Positions 15,438 through 55,556 of a DNA stretch of 64,000 nucleotides are shown here, in pieces. The DNA is from a virus (lineage: Duplodnaviria > Caudoviricetes), in IMG/VR virus record IMGVR_UViG_3300045596_000094, positions 96,001-160,000 of that record; one strand, written 5' to 3'. Both the position numbers and the translations under genes were made by a program. The number at the start of each line of letters is the position of its first letter. The stretch's first letter is position 1. The notes beneath the pieces were generated by a model. It had not been told where the DNA came from. It saw nothing but the letters and a program-made list of their open reading frames with translations, and ran no database searches.

Positions 15438-15479
15438 ATTCAAGTTTATAGTGTATATGTGAAAATATTTTAATTGAGA
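15438..15479 (-). promoter_or_regulatory. Putative early promoter
   Basis: 35 bp identical to 28652-28686. Confidence 0.8.
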
Positions 15480-15485
15480 ACATAA

Positions 15486-21162: not shown

Positions 21163-22404
21163 TTATTTTTTACCGGTATTGGTTTCTTTAGTTAAATCGC
21201 GGATAAACCCGTTGCTAATTGCAATGAGTATTCGTTGATAGTTGCGACTGAATAGATCAACACTTCGTGCATTTGTTTGAAGTTGGGAAACAATGTCCTG
21301 AACGCTTTGTAGACGACGCAATGCTACCGTTTGATGGGCTGGATCTAAATCAGAATCTTTTAGGGTATTCTTAATAAATACCTCAAGGACTGAAAGGCGT
21401 CGCTCCATATCTCTAAAAGTTGATTTATCGTGAAGCTTACCTAGTTTCGCAGACACACCATCGATACGACTGATGTTTTCTTCGCCGAACTGTCGCATTT
21501 GAGCTAGGGTGTATTCAAAAGTGAAGTTTACAGAGTTATTCCAACCAAGCTCTTTACCAAGATTTTCAACAACTATTTTTTCTTTACGAATTGCATTTTC
21601 ATTATTGGAATGTCTTGCCGCGATATCAAAACCGATCATTGAAAAATTATTATGGGCCAACCCAAATAGTTTTCTGCGCTGATTCATCTTGTTGAGTTCA
21701 AATGTTGGAACTGGCTGATTTTTCTGCATATACGTAGTTACAGTATCGATGACACCAGTAACGGCTTTGATTTCATCCATAAACGCATCGACCAAAGTAT
21801 CGTAATATTTAGAAATATTTTGAGCGCTTGTTTGAAGATTACCGTAATTGTATCGATAACCTGGTCTTGGTAAATGTTTAGGTGTGTGGAAGACGATAAT
21901 AGTACTGCCTGGCCAAGTCACTGTATGAACTTCGTTTACATCAACGGTTTCAGCTTTCTTTTCGAATATCTCTTCTATAACCGCCTTGTTATGAGCGGCC
22001 GCTCGAGCCATATGCGTGTCCATAAGTTTAGACTGTAAGAGTGTTTCTTTAATCCACTTTACGACCGAGCTGATCCAGCGTAAAATAGCCTCCCCTATAG
22101 ATTTAAAGAACGAACCCACACCTTCTTGAGATATCACCTTTAAGTTTTCTGTACTCTCGGTCAAACCCATATTGGTTGATGGTAAATTCAACAGGCCGCT
22201 TAATTCATTCATCTTCGTCTGAATCTGACCAGCAATAATGGGGTCGTTGAATTGTGCCGGACTAAGCATTTCAAGACCCTCATGAAAACGAATAGCCTTA
22301 TCTAAGATATTAGCCACCTCCATTCCGTCTTGCGGAAGGTGTTCAACCGGACCGACATGATTCGGTATTTTCAACTCATGCTTAATGTTAATAGCGCTCA
22401 ACAT
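21163..22404 (-). CDS. Internal head protein (phiKZ-like head paralog family)
   Basis: Propeptide ending ISQE-GVGSFFKSIGEAILRWI, typical cleavage site plus amphipathic helix. Confidence 0.7.
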   Translation of the reverse strand: MLSAINIKHELKIPNHVGPVEHLPQDGMEVANILDKAIRFHEGLEMLSPAQFNDPIIAGQIQTKMNELSGLLNLPSTNMGLTESTENLKVISQEGVGSFFKSIGEAILRWISSVVKWIKETLLQSKLMDTHMARAAAHNKAVIEEIFEKKAETVDVNEVHTVTWPGSTIIVFHTPKHLPRPGYRYNYGNLQTSAQNISKYYDTLVDAFMDEIKAVTGVIDTVTTYMQKNQPVPTFELNKMNQRRKLFGLAHNNFSMIGFDIAARHSNNENAIRKEKIVVENLGKELGWNNSVNFTFEYTLAQMRQFGEENISRIDGVSAKLGKLHDKSTFRDMERRLSVLEVFIKNTLKDSDLDPAHQTVALRRLQSVQDIVSQLQTNARSVDLFSRNYQRILIAISNGFIRDLTKETNTGKK

Positions 22405-24001
22405 TTTTCAATGACTCCTCAAAGTGATGTGCAAATACTGAAAATCCACCCACGAGATACCACATCACTTTCCCGGGGTTGTGTTTAATTTCGTGATCTT
22501 TATCTAGATCGTCAATAATCTTGTCGATAGGAATATCTGGTTTGTCATCGCCATCTTCTGCGCCACCGTCCGTAAGTTCACATTGTTCAAGGAACTTCTC
22601 TAACGCGTACTTTGTCACTAGCTCCGGTGCAATTAAACTCAACCAATAAACAAAGATACAGGGGTGCTTCAATAAATCATCACGCCCTTCGTCGTTTAAT
22701 CGACTGATGTCCATCAACAATGATAACGTCATGTGATAATATTCACGAGGTTCTAAAGGAACTGAGCATTCCATCGTAAGATCTGGCAGTAACTTCAGAG
22801 TAGAAAGATCACGGTATTGGTCTTTCTCGTATAAACCTATTAAGAAGAGATTACTATATGGCTTGTTGGTTTTGCTACATGTATCACGAAGATACTTCTG
22901 TGCAATCGGATTAATCTGCCAATATCCTAAACCCTGTAGATCAACAACGCGGTTAGGCATTTCAGGTCTCTGTTTAATCAGAGGACGCGTAAGCGTTTCA
23001 TACCCTGGCGGTGCTTTACAATCCCCTAACCAATCATCGAAATACGGGATAGGAACCCCAGGTCTTCGACTCACGGCACTGGTCTTAATATTCGTAAACC
23101 TAAAGTGATCAAAAGCCAACTGAGAATAAGAACCAGTTTTAACAATATAATCTAATTCAAAAGGAATACGATTCGTTTTAATAAACTTAGGCGGTATTGC
23201 TTGGTTGTGGATGGTCAACGGCATTTTCATTGACATTGTCTCTGGACGATCATACCAGTAATGGTAATCGAACGTCAAAGAGAACAAAGTCGAATCATTC
23301 TCTTTTTCTTCTTTTGGTGGATTATCACCAAAATCGAAATAACCTTGAATCGGTAATTGGTTTTCTTTAATTACAAATAAAGAACCTTTCCCGCCTGGGT
23401 TAGTAATGACCGTATACGAATCAATGAAATGCTTTTTTAGGTAATCGCCTAATTCATCCCCGTAGCCTGCATTGGATTCCCGTAATTTGTGTGCTTCAAT
23501 TAAAGCGATCATGTAATACATCGGAATTGGGTAATGATAAGTCACTACGTGATTTAAATCGATTACCCCCTGAGCAGTCTTCCGCTTTAATACCGCTCTC
23601 CAACGCTCCACCTGTTTCTCTGTCCCAGTTAAAGTGATAGATAGGGTGGCGTGTTTACTCACCAGTGACGGCCAAATTAAGATTCCTAATTTAGGATCAT
23701 TAAAAACGGCTCTTTGTTCAGGACGCCATACACTGGTCGACAATAAAGTTTTATCATTGTCTTCTTCTTCAAATTCTACATAGGTCAAGGAATCGCCTTC
23801 ATAACGGTTATGGTCGTTAATATAGCGTTTATTAAAATAATCAGATCCTTCGTAGAAGAACTGATTCCCTCGACCCTTAAACATTAACTTAGAATCTTCA
23901 GGTAAACTCATCTGTGTCAATAAATCTCGCAAGACGTTTATCGCAATGGGTCTTTGAATTGATTCTACGATTTCCTCTAAAGGTAAACTGTATAAGGGCA
24001 T
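22388..24001 (-). CDS. Virion structural (neck/tail-completion) protein (phiKZ gp98-like)
   Basis: 537 aa; IQRPIA, YHYPIP, IQGYFDF and IPYFDDW motifs; synteny. Confidence 0.7.
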   Translation of the reverse strand: MPLYSLPLEEIVESIQRPIAINVLRDLLTQMSLPEDSKLMFKGRGNQFFYEGSDYFNKRYINDHNRYEGDSLTYVEFEEEDNDKTLLSTSVWRPEQRAVFNDPKLGILIWPSLVSKHATLSITLTGTEKQVERWRAVLKRKTAQGVIDLNHVVTYHYPIPMYYMIALIEAHKLRESNAGYGDELGDYLKKHFIDSYTVITNPGGKGSLFVIKENQLPIQGYFDFGDNPPKEEKENDSTLFSLTFDYHYWYDRPETMSMKMPLTIHNQAIPPKFIKTNRIPFELDYIVKTGSYSQLAFDHFRFTNIKTSAVSRRPGVPIPYFDDWLGDCKAPPGYETLTRPLIKQRPEMPNRVVDLQGLGYWQINPIAQKYLRDTCSKTNKPYSNLFLIGLYEKDQYRDLSTLKLLPDLTMECSVPLEPREYYHMTLSLLMDISRLNDEGRDDLLKHPCIFVYWLSLIAPELVTKYALEKFLEQCELTDGGAEDGDDKPDIPIDKIIDDLDKDHEIKHNPGKVMWYLVGGFSVFAHHFEESLKNVERY

Positions 24002-24073: not shown

Positions 24074-24526
24074 TTATGTTTTATTGGTTTGTTGGATTTT
24101 TAGTAGGTCTAGATCAAAATGCATTTGGTCTAGAATGTGTTGAATGCTCTTATCGCGATCAAGATAATGTCGAATATATACCTCGGTTCGAGCATAGAAC
24201 TGATTTCTGAACTCTACATCAATTTCTTTGTTTTCATTCAAGGAAAGCAACCGACGAACCAGCATACAGTCAATGAGGTAATGATAATCAATCGAATCTT
24301 TCTTCCATCGATAGACCATTTCGAGCATGTAGGTTAAATACTGAGTTCTCTTTTCTGAAGGAACTGAATCTAGTAAAGAAGAGAACCCTAAAGGTTTCTT
24401 CTTGGCTTCAGCATTCTTTAACCAACCCAATTCCTGAGAAACAACGACGAGAAACCAGATAACCGCAGAACAAGAAACGATCATAGCCAATGTTTCCATT
24501 GCAATATAAAACGCATGGTATTCCAT
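24074..24526 (-). CDS. Membrane-anchored hypothetical protein
   Basis: 150 aa; N-terminal TM helix. Confidence 0.7.
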   Translation of the reverse strand: MEYHAFYIAMETLAMIVSCSAVIWFLVVVSQELGWLKNAEAKKKPLGFSSLLDSVPSEKRTQYLTYMLEMVYRWKKDSIDYHYLIDCMLVRRLLSLNENKEIDVEFRNQFYARTEVYIRHYLDRDKSIQHILDQMHFDLDLLKIQQTNKT

Positions 24527-24529
24527 AAA

Positions 24530-25045
24530 CTACCCTTTAACAAACTCTTTCTCGACCAACTGGTCGATATGGAGATTCACCCAACTCAAGAAACCGAAAG
24601 CTGTCCATTCACTGGTCTCTGGATCGTCATGTGCTTTACAACAGCAACAAAGGTAATAATCTACAATCTTTGCAAACATCTCATCGTCTAGATGAGTTTC
24701 ATTCTTACATTCAATCAATGCAGTTTTCACAAAAGAGGAGATGTCATCCCCTACGGCATTGTAAACCCAATCTTGCCCTTTTACTTCAACTAAGCGTTTC
24801 ATTACCCAATCGAAACAATCATCAGAATAGATCTCTATCTTCCTTCTAAAAGCCAACAGCATAACCCCAGAAACACCATACATCAAAGGGATTAACTTCT
24901 CCACCCCCACCTGATACATCTTGTTAGCCAAATCGCTTCCTAAACCTACCCCTCTCAAAGGTTTCAATACCTTCTCTATATAGTGTTTCCAGATACAGTA
25001 CAAAACCAACACAAATCCAGCAACCAACATAATCTTCAACAACAT
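24530..25045 (-). CDS. Membrane-anchored hypothetical protein
   Basis: 171 aa; N-terminal TM helix and a CCCC stretch. Confidence 0.7.
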   Translation of the reverse strand: MLLKIMLVAGFVLVLYCIWKHYIEKVLKPLRGVGLGSDLANKMYQVGVEKLIPLMYGVSGVMLLAFRRKIEIYSDDCFDWVMKRLVEVKGQDWVYNAVGDDISSFVKTALIECKNETHLDDEMFAKIVDYYLCCCCKAHDDPETSEWTAFGFLSWVNLHIDQLVEKEFVKG

Positions 25046-25600
25046 AATCCCATCCCCCTCTAGATTACCAGGACAATCTATACCCAGTCATTAAACATAG
25101 CATTCTTCTACTTAGATTATATTTTAATCAATCTAGAGCTTTACCCTAAAGGAAGCTCTAGTATCTAAGTACTCATCTCTCTAGAATCGCAACACCCTAC
25201 ATCAATCTAATTTCTCCACCCATCCCATACCGAGTGAGAATCTCTACCCTAGTAGAGAGATTCGATACTCTCTATCTCCTCACCGTAAGTTCACATACGT
25301 TCCTTACTCTAAGGAGTAGAGTATCTCATCAGTAGAATCTGAGTTAGAAATCTCCCCCAGACCCCCTCTAGTATATCTGTAGTATTAGTCTAGTATACTC
25401 TATCATTACTACTCTAATCTCTACTCTATTACTAATCTCTTTATATTAATAAAGAGGAGATTTCCTTCGGATCTCCTCTCCTTCTTCTTATCCCACATAT
25501 TTGCCCCCATGATCCCCCATCGCTGGAGGTGGATTAATTACATAGTAATAGTGTACTAATAAAAAATTACTTTATTGAAAAAATAAAAATAAATAAAAGT
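25046..25600. other. Non-coding, hairpin-dense, pyrimidine-skewed element (candidate origin or structured RNA)
   Basis: No ORF in the track; at least 7 inverted repeats, C5 tracts, TACTCT-type repeats, A-rich end. Confidence 0.6.
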
Positions 25601-25603
25601 TAG

Positions 25604-25631
25604 AGAGTAGAACCCCGAAGGATTCTACTCT
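25604..25631 (-). terminator. cUUCGg hairpin terminator
   Basis: Minus strand AGAGTAGAATCC-TTCG-GGGTTCTACTCT with a long U-rich tail. Confidence 0.85.
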
Positions 25632-25685
25632 AAGTGGATTAAGATTCTTTTAGTTCAGGTACGAAGTTAGTGGTATTTACTACCC

Positions 25686-26405
25686 TCAGCTTTCTACACC
25701 TAAAACATCTTTCTTCTGTTTGAAATGCATCCAGGAAATTTGCTCGTCATTAAAACCATGTTCAAGCAAAAAGTTTTTTGCTGCCTCTTCGTCCGTAAAG
25801 AATCGAATATCCCCATTTTCATCCAGAATGTACTCGTGCGGGTTTATAGTGATGCCATTTATATTGCGTGCGATACATACGTTCATTTGAGTTCCTTGTT
25901 GGTTTGTTGCGCGTTTGAAGATGGTCTTGACTTCAGTTGACACCGAGTTTGTATCTGTGACTGGATACGCGATTTCCATATCTAAATGGAGATGCAGATC
26001 CAGGATAACTTGACATTCATCTTGGGCTAACCCAGTAATAATGAGTGATCCCCAATTACTGCGGTCTAGATGTCCACGTAAGCTTTCAATAACTTTCTTA
26101 CGATAACGTACAGCGTTCTCGTAGAAATAAGAGTTATGTTCCTGTAGGTGATTAATAGGTTGAAATTCCAGATGTAAGAGAGAACACTGGATACCTTCTA
26201 GTTGCGTAAGTAAATTATCCTGCCAGTCACCGACTGTAGCTGTTGGAAGAACAACATGTAGAGGTGTTAGATTTGGATCGAAATCCAAATCTACTTCCTC
26301 AGCATATTGGCGGAATTCTTCCCAGAACCAAAAACGGAAACCGACGTTACCGCTTAGTTTATTTTGATCAGCCATACCAGTTGTAAGGGCGATAATTTTA
26401 GCCAT
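25686..26405 (-). CDS. Hypothetical protein, paralog of 26448-26933, fused to a 66 aa C-terminal module
   Basis: Shared PxATVG, HLxFQP, SNW, TGLxxDEC and FxRAT motifs. Confidence 0.8.
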   Translation of the reverse strand: MAKIIALTTGMADQNKLSGNVGFRFWFWEEFRQYAEEVDLDFDPNLTPLHVVLPTATVGDWQDNLLTQLEGIQCSLLHLEFQPINHLQEHNSYFYENAVRYRKKVIESLRGHLDRSNWGSLIITGLAQDECQVILDLHLHLDMEIAYPVTDTNSVSTEVKTIFKRATNQQGTQMNVCIARNINGITINPHEYILDENGDIRFFTDEEAAKNFLLEHGFNDEQISWMHFKQKKDVLGVES

Positions 26406-54812: not shown

Positions 54813-54852
54813 GATGTGTTTCCTTAAAGAGTTTGGGTTGTGTGTTAATGGT

Positions 54853-54880
54853 ATACTTGACAGCCGAAACTGTCAAGTAT
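54853..54880 (-). terminator. UUCG-containing hairpin
   Basis: ATACTTGACAG/CTGTCAAGTAT stem. Confidence 0.75.
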
Positions 54881-54891
54881 AAATTTCATTT

Positions 54892-55198
54892 TTATTTGTC
54901 AGCGTAAATCGATTTGATTGTATTTACATGTACATCGATCTGAATCATTGATCCAGTTAGAATTAATGTGTCTAGAATTTGTGCGGTTTTCTTATAGCCG
55001 CGTTTTTTTCAACGCTCGAGAAACCAATACGTTTGATGCTGTTTGAATAGCCACCATGCTAACGTAGGTAGCGGTCGCTAAAGATTTATTACCTTTACAT
55101 ACGTTTAATAATCCTTCTGCACAGAGTTCGGCATCAACTTTACGTAATTCAGCTACGTTAGAGATAGTATTGATTGCTTTGTTGAATAAGTTTTTCAT
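54892..55198 (-). pseudogene. Frameshifted paralog of 54522-54812 (extra A in the A7 run at 55003-55009)
   Basis: Removing one A restores KRGYKKTAQIL...IKSIYADK*, matching KRGYTKTGNVL...LKAIVEA* of the paralog. Confidence 0.8.
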
Positions 55199-55254
55199 AA
55201 TGATATTTCCTAAATGGGATATAAAAAGGTTTATTAAATAGGATTCGTTTTCCT

Positions 55255-55296
55255 ATTCATAATGGTAATGTGTAAGTGAAATATTTTTAAATGAGA
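55255..55296 (-). promoter_or_regulatory. Putative early promoter
   Basis: Minus strand TCTCATTTAAAAATATTTCACTTACACATTACCATTATGAAT; close match to the 47732 copy. Confidence 0.8.
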
Positions 55297-55342
55297 TTTT
55301 TCACATGCACTTAGAGCCCGTAAGCTCTAAGTGCATTATGGT

Positions 55343-55492
55343 TTATTTAAATAACTTTGTCAATAATAAAAAGAAAAGATTTCTAACTCTATTTTCACGC
55401 ACATAAATGCGGATCACTTCATCACTCAACTCATCGGTATAATCTTCCGCTTTGTTATCGTTATCCATAAAGACATCCTTTCCCTTACTCAT
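55343..55492 (-). CDS. 49 aa hypothetical peptide (absent from ORF track; start may be 55468)
   Basis: MSKGKDVFMDNDNKAEDYTDELSDEVIRIYVRENRVRNLFFLLLTKLFK; fills the space between two hairpins. Confidence 0.45.
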   Translation of the reverse strand: MSKGKDVFMDNDNKAEDYTDELSDEVIRIYVRENRVRNLFFLLLTKLFK

Positions 55493-55525
55493 AAGAATTC
55501 AAAAGAAAAATATCTAAAGGTTAAG

Positions 55526-55551
55526 AGAGAAAGACCCGAAGGTCTTTCTCT
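55526..55551 (-). terminator. cUUCGg hairpin terminator
   Basis: Minus strand AGAGAAAGACC-TTCG-GGTCTTTCTCT. Confidence 0.8.
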
Positions 55552-55556
55552 AAAGG

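Follow-up and report, generated by a model that had tools for sequence, protein, structure and literature searches.

The 64,000-nucleotide (nt) stretch analyzed here, hereafter the window, corresponds to bases 96001-160000 of the IMG/VR virus record IMGVR_UViG_3300045596_000094, a genome of 269,038 bp with direct terminal repeats. We studied the gap at window positions 25046-25685, which separates an open reading frame (ORF) of 171 amino acids (aa; 24530-25045) from another of 239 aa (25686-26405), both located on the minus strand like all neighboring genes. Our analysis suggests, with a probability that we estimate at about 0.62, that this gap marks the boundary of a transcription unit, past which lies a new structured RNA of the minus strand, specific to the clade and either a 5' leader or a non-coding RNA. 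Most likely, the element is a cis-acting 5' leader that sets the output of the 171-aa gene, and a stable leader-derived RNA is probably produced as well. We favor this reading because of the transcription context of the element, its synteny, its conservation and a limited covariation. A first-pass annotation of the same DNA had left a choice between an origin-like DNA element and a structured RNA or leader of ~480 nt. The second proposal was supported by the transcription context, by synteny in six lineages, by compensatory changes and G-U-dependent helices of the minus strand, and by a conservation above that of the flanking proteins.

On sequence grounds, the source genome is a phiKZ-like (chimallivirus-type) jumbo phage of a poorly sampled clade, an assignment made because of a virion-type protein of 537 aa and of phiKZ domains at neighboring loci of its relatives. 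This 537-aa protein, encoded just downstream of the element (22388-24001, minus strand), matched PHROG 3289 and shared ~27% identity with virion-associated proteins from jumbo phages of Serratia, Erwinia, Klebsiella, and Pseudomonas. The domains found in the neighboring loci of relatives were those of the phiKZ inner body, the phiKZ major capsid protein and gp91. A blastn comparison of the window genome with the 50,697 phage records of INPHARED returned zero nucleotide matches, and searches of IMG/VR with single proteins, two invariant motifs and a 16-protein profile recovered no close relative, only one locus with 25% identity. Relatives were contigs from public assemblies that encode homologues of the 537-aa protein (70-74% identity and below), to which a metagenome search with an invariant 21-mer added one contig.

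The element had a syntenic counterpart, at the same place, in six related lineages besides the window, namely L002/L003, L004, L005 (cut by the contig end), L006-L008, L013, and L023. Contigs L019-L021, which are near-identical copies of the window's own lineage, also carried it. Across lineages, the core of the element was 88-92% identical over aligned columns, compared with 70-74% protein identity for the nearby 537-aa virion protein. Homology among the relatives starts exactly at a terminator upstream of the element, and the genes upstream of this point differ between lineages. Using nhmmer, no copy of the element was detected in the distant relatives L009, L011/L012, L014, and L016 (54-58% and ~40% protein identity).

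The terminator just mentioned is an intrinsic-type hairpin (25631-25604) of 12 pairs with a UUCG loop and the tail CUAACUUUUA, located 55 nt past the stop codon of the 239-aa gene. It combines a G+C-rich hairpin with a U-rich tail at a gene end and, judged by these features, is the terminator of the upstream 239-aa gene. Five lineages share this hairpin unchanged. Throughout the genome, UUCG hairpins of the same type are found between genes on the transcribed strand. At the terminator position of the remaining lineage (L023:3455-3492), the hairpin is a different one, GAGUAGAGCUUCC-AUAG-CGGAGCUCUACUC; the function appears to have been kept there and the sequence replaced. Past the terminator, the relatives share an A/T-rich region and a TATG motif; the combination ATTTTTTATT...TATG has hardly any other occurrence in the genome. 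Late promoters of the phiKZ non-virion RNA polymerase have TATG as their consensus, with its G as position +1, and the motif is required yet insufficient for such a promoter (PMC4666361). By analogy, transcription of the element would start at G 25541. The first-pass annotation had also pointed to an A/T-rich block, as part of a possible origin, and to an early-promoter-like core, TACACTAT. The block is present but overlaps the upstream part of the putative promoter. As for TACACTAT, it does match a recurrent 38-nt promoter-like motif of the genome, but it is not conserved at this site in the relatives, which keep ATTTTTTATT and TATTAGTATGTAA. Because the relatives lack it, the TACACTAT motif class was rejected for this promoter.

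Two other observations concern the promoters of this phage in general. A recurrent promoter-like motif of ~38 nt, AATTAAAATATTTTCACATATACACTATAAACTTGAAT, occurs on the minus strand 40-200 nt upstream of genes, usually just past a terminator hairpin and TTTATG (G000:C1 111455, 124669, 175163, 187120, 212066, 254407, and 261725, which include window positions 15455 and 28669), and probably represents one promoter class of the phage. In addition, more than 15 cassettes in the genome have a terminator hairpin directly followed by (T)TTATG(C/T), for example at window positions 15484, 28695, and 47855, so that terminators and TATG-type promoters appear to be fused at many gene borders.

The core of the element extends over ~300 nt, from 25541 to ~25241, is G-rich and C-poor, and is single-copy in the genome. 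Its parts are listed in Table 1 with those of the flanking regions, including the inverted repeats named in the first-pass annotation, all of which were found, far beyond what chance would give. Four G5/G6 tracts, arranged in two pairs, never vary, and only two G5-N-G5 pairs exist genome-wide, both within the element. The five C5 tracts noted earlier on the other strand are likewise all present (25054, 25354, 25362, 25504, and 25514). With 56 C5 tracts in the whole 269-kb genome, ~0.1 are expected per 460 nt compared with the 5 seen here (Poisson P ~1e-7). The two arms of hairpin H1 covary in length, a pyrimidine arm of 5 nt (CCUCC) going with G5 and one of 6 nt (CUCUCC) with G6. Three pairs of hairpin H2 have both partners replaced, two going from A-U to G-C and one from A-U to U-A. 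Read on the plus strand, H2 is the cTTCGg hairpin that the first-pass annotation had set against the minus-strand terminators; this loop is real, but it is the reverse complement of a compensatorily kept hairpin and alone is no proof of plus-strand transcription. UAG is enriched (20 observed vs 11.2 expected), and the CUCCUUA inside the pyrimidine-rich segment UACUCUACUCCUUAGAGUAAG resembles the anti-Shine-Dalgarno sequence. The loop of hairpin H5 occurs as UAGG, UGGG, or UAAG, and the hairpin is absent from L004, L013, and L023.

Table 1. Features of the gap and its flanks (window coordinates; alt A and alt B are alternative pairings of the same segment).
Feature	Position	Strand	Remarks
Intrinsic-terminator-type hairpin, C(UUCG)G loop	25604-25631	-	Called by terminator scan
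A/T-rich promoter-upstream region	25545-25603	-	Conserved in all relatives
Conserved ATTTTTTATT	25558-25567	-	-26 to -17 relative to the putative start
TATG core of the putative promoter	25541-25544	-	TATGTAA (25544-25538) invariant in all lineages
Hairpin H1, CCUCC(A) and first G5 tract	25514-25529	-	Paired in 100% of sequences; only C-G to U-G changes
Second G5 of pair A (G5-N5-G5)	25504-25508	-	Central four G invariant in all lineages
Hairpin H2, GAGAGGAGAUCC-GAA-GG..AUCUCCUCU	25452-25480	-	12 pairs, 100% paired; plus strand is the cTTCGg hairpin
AGAGGAGAT...ATCTCCTCT hairpin, cTTCGg loop	25453-25479	+	
Purine-rich, nearly C-free spacer	25374-25451	-	UAGAG/AGUAG micro-repeats; length and sequence vary between lineages
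UACUAGAG and G5-UCU-G5 (G-tract pair B), 5' arm of alt A	25355-25373	-	Invariant in five lineages; 2-nt shift in L023
Pyrimidine-rich segment UACUCUACUCCUUAGAGUAAG	25303-25323	-	21/21 nt identical in every lineage; once in genome
Three-tier hairpin alt B, GAUACUCU/AGAGUAUC, CUCCUU/GAGGAG, GUAAG/CUUAC	25259-25330	-	Apical loop variable
Hairpin H5, UCUCUAC-UAGG-GUAGAGA	25241-25258	-	Core end in the window, L002, and L006 lineages
Nested 3' hairpin	25109-25171	-	Exact 9+9 and 9+9 inverted repeats
Inverted repeat TACTTAGAT/ATCTAAGTA	25109-25117 and 25163-25171		Outer pair, encloses CTAGAGCTT/AAGCTCTAG
Inverted repeat CTAGAGCTT/AAGCTCTAG	25133-25141 and 25153-25161		Inner pair
Inverted repeat GATACTCT/AGAGTATC			Inside repeat I15
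Second TATG (TGCTATG)	25096-25099	-	50 nt before start codon
Shine-Dalgarno region CUAGAGGGGGAU (fifth G5 tract) and ATG of 171-aa gene	25043-25063	-	
171-aa gene	24530-25045	-	N-terminal transmembrane helix; motif EWTAFGFLSWVNLxIDQ

Compared with dinucleotide shuffles, a 500-nt stretch of the gap gave folding z-scores of -4.4 (minus strand) and -4.5 (plus strand), and the putative 446-nt transcript reached -5.25. Consensus folding of five independent lineages, compared with column shuffles, yielded z-scores of -7.5 (minus strand) and -9.1 (plus strand). The proposed helices contained 55 G-U cells vs 1 A-C cell and, hence, work on the minus strand only. The invariant segment UACUCUACUCCUUAGAGUAAG can pair either upstream (alt A) or downstream (alt B), and these two pairings are mutually exclusive. 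In alt A, the RNAalifold consensus, 25355-25373 pairs with 25305-25321 through 15 pairs, 4 of them G-U and all invariant, across a loop that ranges from ~6 nt (L005) to ~55 nt (L002). Alt B was present in the single-sequence minimum-energy folds of most lineages, with ~90% of its cells paired; in four lineages it has an advantage of 5-10 kcal/mol, and in the short-loop L004 and L005 the two alternatives are equal. The apical loops of both alternatives vary within ~6-55 nt between invariant arms. Each G-tract pair (G5-N5-G5, G5-N3-G5) allows a two-tier quadruplex at most. ViennaRNA with quadruplexes enabled (gquad) predicted one at pair B in 4/5 lineages, with a gain of 2-5 kcal/mol, and the tracts can alternatively pair with pyrimidine segments. 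For the covariation proposed as a check in the first-pass annotation, three compensatory pairs were found in H2; the pairs of alt A are mostly invariant.

The element does not behave as a coding region. We found no codon periodicity of substitutions in it, the three phases being even (p = 0.72-0.99), its indels were not multiples of three (gap lengths of 1, 2, 7, 8, 14 and so on), and it contains no conserved open frame. A hidden or recoded gene was also considered and rejected, the long plus-strand frame obtained under TAG=Q being a by-product of the G-poor strand. The gap had been described as the largest one free of ORFs in the window. At a 75-aa cutoff, a 744-nt gap at 54813-55556 is longer, but the gap studied here is the largest truly non-coding stretch of the window. 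Indeed, two ORFs of 49 and 68 aa occupy the minus strand of the longer gap, both accompanied by a hairpin/terminator and promoter-like motifs of their own; this gap is a small-gene island rather than a non-coding element.

Several points weigh against a structured leader or non-coding RNA. We infer the start site, the 3' end and the transcription through the element. The pairs of alt A mostly never vary, which leaves this helix without covariation support, and the switch between alt A and alt B is, from the energy models, a thermodynamic possibility. Since the plus strand folds significantly too (z = -9.1), energy alone does not choose a strand. Because the sequences are related, the scores against shuffled controls come out too high, and there are about six independent lineages in all. 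The excess of G-U cells comes in part from the G-rich composition and from the fact that the structure was predicted on the minus strand. A gene-proximal TATG in some lineages means that the gene may not depend on the leader. Finally, an extreme skew runs through the coding gene, which a purely RNA-structural account does not explain.

Under the leader or non-coding RNA reading, the following sequence of events can be proposed. The upstream gene would stop at the UUCG terminator (25631-25604), next to which lies the A/T-rich TATG promoter. A transcript from 25541 would open with the core, that is H1, the two G5/G6 tract pairs, H2, the purine-rich spacer and the 21-nt pyrimidine segment, and a variable tail with a hairpin, the second TATG and a Shine-Dalgarno sequence would lead to the membrane-protein gene of 171 aa. 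The CUCCUUA segment would choose between the upstream G-tract pair (alt A) and the three-tier hairpin (alt B), and this choice, by freeing or occupying the G tracts, could alter read-through or the access of ribosomes downstream. The core could serve as an mRNA leader, as a discrete hairpin-ended RNA, or as both.

The tail located 3' of the core diverges between lineages. In the window, its nested hairpin may act as an attenuator or terminator, or mark where a leader-derived RNA ends. A hairpin precedes the gene in five of the six lineages (L002, L004, L005, L013, and L023), each time with a different sequence, and none was seen in L006. The second TATG is a candidate gene-proximal promoter. 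Few 7-mers are as enriched ahead of genes in this genome as TGCTATG and TTTTATG, and the second TATG is shared by three lineages, with (T/C)TATGTTTA aligned in the window, L002, and L006. At the Shine-Dalgarno region, the 10-nt CUAGAGGGGG is a second occurrence of the sequence that opens pair B, and the G5 tract at this place is not conserved in the relatives.

Between lineages, the protein encoded downstream shares only 28-35% identity. Of 1.84 billion proteins, 5 represent its family, every one of them belonging to this clade, and no match was obtained in Pfam, PHROG, or PADLOC. The sense strand of the 171-aa gene has a GC skew of 0.43, ranking first of 272 ORFs, and its third-codon-position skew of 0.38 also ranks first (genome mean of -0.04). 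This skew is kept in L002 and L006, and more weakly in L004, despite the low protein identity. The kilobase 24501-25500, which covers the element and this first gene, is the most GC-skewed of the genome (z = -5.5). Because the skew persists while the proteins have diverged, the whole ~1-kb unit seems to be under constraint at the nucleic-acid level.

The most serious competing explanation, which we nevertheless regard as unlikely, is a stand-alone non-coding RNA gene. The promoter at 25544 would produce an RNA of ~380-440 nt ending at 25171-25109 and acting in trans, for example as a protein-binding scaffold or decoy, and the 171-aa gene would be transcribed from the TATG at 25099. A hairpin followed by TATG is indeed the standard terminator-plus-promoter cassette of this genome, hairpins of differing sequence occupy the equivalent position in 5/6 lineages, the 7-mers TGCTATG and TTTTATG are enriched and promoter-like, and the core is far better conserved than the gene it precedes. 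However, L006-L008 have no hairpin between core and gene, the second TATG is missing from some lineages, and the 3' hairpin has no U tract and was not called by the terminator scan. Moreover, the same gene family adjoins the core in every lineage, which suits a role in cis.

A DNA replication element, which is a particular version of the origin proposed in the first-pass annotation, appears improbable. According to this explanation, a promoter, G clusters and a G-skewed kilobase would together favor a co-transcriptional R-loop whose RNA primes DNA synthesis. It draws on the record skew of the 24501-25500 kilobase (z = -5.5), which extends from the putative start through the first gene, affects each of the three codon positions and persists in relatives, on the G5-N-G5 clusters located 23-37 nt and ~175-187 nt past the start, and on a 2026 review of nucleus-forming jumbo phages that describes no origin. 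If true, nucleus-forming jumbo phages would have their first candidate origin, and the question of where these phages begin to replicate their DNA would be opened. The origin reading of the first-pass annotation, however, received no positive support. Cumulative GC skew, which had been suggested as a check, has its extremes at ~10 kb and 223 kb and no inflection at the locus (121 kb), a weak argument because phage skew largely follows transcription. Iterons were not found, nor were tandem repeats apart from (AAAAAT)2.5 or any regularly spaced direct-repeat family. The A/T-rich block lies upstream of the conserved TATG, as a promoter would have it. A rough hybrid-minus-duplex energy profile, calculated with nearest-neighbor parameters, ranked the unit 4th in the genome (z = -3.1), and G amounts to 27-30%, well under classical R-loop zones. 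Compensatory changes and variable loops further indicate selection on a folded single strand. As a separate observation, G000:C1:228001-233400 (plus strand), with a GC skew of +0.27 and a purine fraction of 0.54, ranks second in the genome for skew and tops the same rough hybrid-energy profile.

Slightly less probable still is a recombination linker at a module boundary, that is, a block kept by exchange of the variable upstream island, in the manner of T4-type promoter/stem-loop cassettes, and having no RNA function of its own. The differing upstream genes and the abrupt start of homology at the terminator agree with it, as does L019, in which 1 base of the element differs, identity is 96-97% in the next two genes and the upstream gene has been replaced. 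Yet the core is single-copy in the genome, and a comparison of distant lineages shows it to alternate between invariant blocks and variable loops, with compensatory changes, and not to be a uniformly young sequence. As the gene on the other side is 28-35% identical, exchange would also have to stop at both edges in every lineage. Least probable of all is an antisense RNA of the plus strand ending at the cTTCGg hairpin (25453-25479): the terminator scan does call this hairpin on the plus strand, it is the sole intergenic UUCG hairpin of 70 listed sites that opposes local transcription, and the plus-strand alignment folds significantly, but no TATG or recurrent promoter motif lies on the plus strand within the gap, H1 and alt A would carry A-C mismatches on that strand, and the tail past the hairpin is C-rich in relatives.

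We also compared the element with known systems. Small RNAs (sRNAs) derived from 5' untranslated regions (5'UTRs) were identified in phiKZ and 201phi2-1 using cap-selective long-read sequencing (PMC11512511). Like the phiKZ sRNA upstream of gp182 and sRNA005 of 201phi2-1 (PMC11512511), the element would be a structured RNA made from a phage promoter in a 5'UTR, in a lineage of nucleus-forming jumbo phages, and in both cases position and fold are conserved among related phages. The sRNAs of these giant phages, however, arise through premature termination past a transcription start, stay below 250 nt and lie ahead of a conserved gene for a tail protein, whereas the core of the element has ~300 nt (~450 nt up to the gene) and the membrane-protein gene that follows it is confined to the clade. 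The location typical of the gp182 family is therefore not shared, the downstream gene being that of the 171-aa membrane protein. The invariant G5 tract pairs and the unit of extreme GC skew also set the element apart, in a comparison made by description only. RNA-level regulation is little known in nucleus-forming jumbo phages, for which few short 5'UTR-derived sRNAs have been reported. The element is longer than these, falls outside known RNA families and has strong evolutionary support. If its alternative pairings do switch, it would represent a new class of cis-regulatory RNA for a phage RNA polymerase system. The small size of the known family limits immediate experiments.

Among Rfam families, GOLLD and ROOL are likewise long, intricately folded phage non-coding RNAs that are better conserved than their surroundings. 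They measure 500-800 nt, are often found beside tRNA genes and occur mainly in Firmicutes-type prophages. The Rfam search proposed in the first-pass annotation matched the element to no family, be it of riboswitches, ribozymes, sRNAs, or CRISPR repeats: Rfam 15 gave no match in the whole window at gathering thresholds and, at E <= 10, the best match within 24900-25800 reached 24 bits vs a threshold of 50 bits, with neither GOLLD nor ROOL matching. Unlike the usual setting of these two families, the window has no tRNA, and no transfer-messenger RNA (tmRNA), according to ARAGORN. ColE1 RNA II and the transcripts of T4 oriF and oriG are R-loop primers, the one at oriF being also an mRNA. The element shares with them a promoter followed by a folded transcript of several hundred nt with G runs, and differs from them in having no skew inflection, no unwinding element downstream of the start and a hybrid energy that is not the top one. 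T4-type promoter/stem-loop (PeSL) cassettes, reportedly described by Arbiol and colleagues in 2010, are said to lie at the edges of variable gene islands. Here too, a terminator hairpin and a promoter stand where a variable accessory island meets conserved genes, but PeSLs are short and repeated within a genome, whereas the core of the element is 300 nt long, single-copy and folded.

Other identities were tried and rejected. The layout of a promoter, a non-coding RNA, a hairpin and a gene of ~170 aa is that of the type III toxin-antitoxin system ToxIN, but the element has no tandem repeats, and the protein, which carries a transmembrane helix, did not match any ToxN, PADLOC, or Pfam model. A hammerhead ribozyme was suggested by CUGAUGAG beside the invariant segment; this motif is absent from L004, L005, and L013, and Rfam returned no match. 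A sponge for CsrA/Rsm proteins was discarded as GGA is not enriched (10 observed vs 10.6 expected). Matches of the G-tract motif in prokaryote genomes (a Selenomonadaceae metagenome-assembled genome and a Leptolyngbya contig) were attributed to chance, with no similarity beyond 22 nt.

A look-alike block was noticed in the relative with 54% protein identity (L011:440-575 and L012:439-574). It consists of a CU-rich arm, G5-N4-G5-N2-G6, a purine-rich linker and a GAGAGAGGAGAGAU/AUCUCUCCUCUC hairpin, and it lies in a 590-nt gap at another genomic position. We did not accept it as a homologue, a covariance model of the 5' domain giving E ~1. In the distant relative L009, an HNH-type endonuclease gene with a sense GC skew of 0.4-0.5 (419-1078) is inserted between a terminator and the homologue of a 131-aa gene of L011; the small ORF found before the HNH-type gene in L009 survives in L011 just as a truncated remnant.

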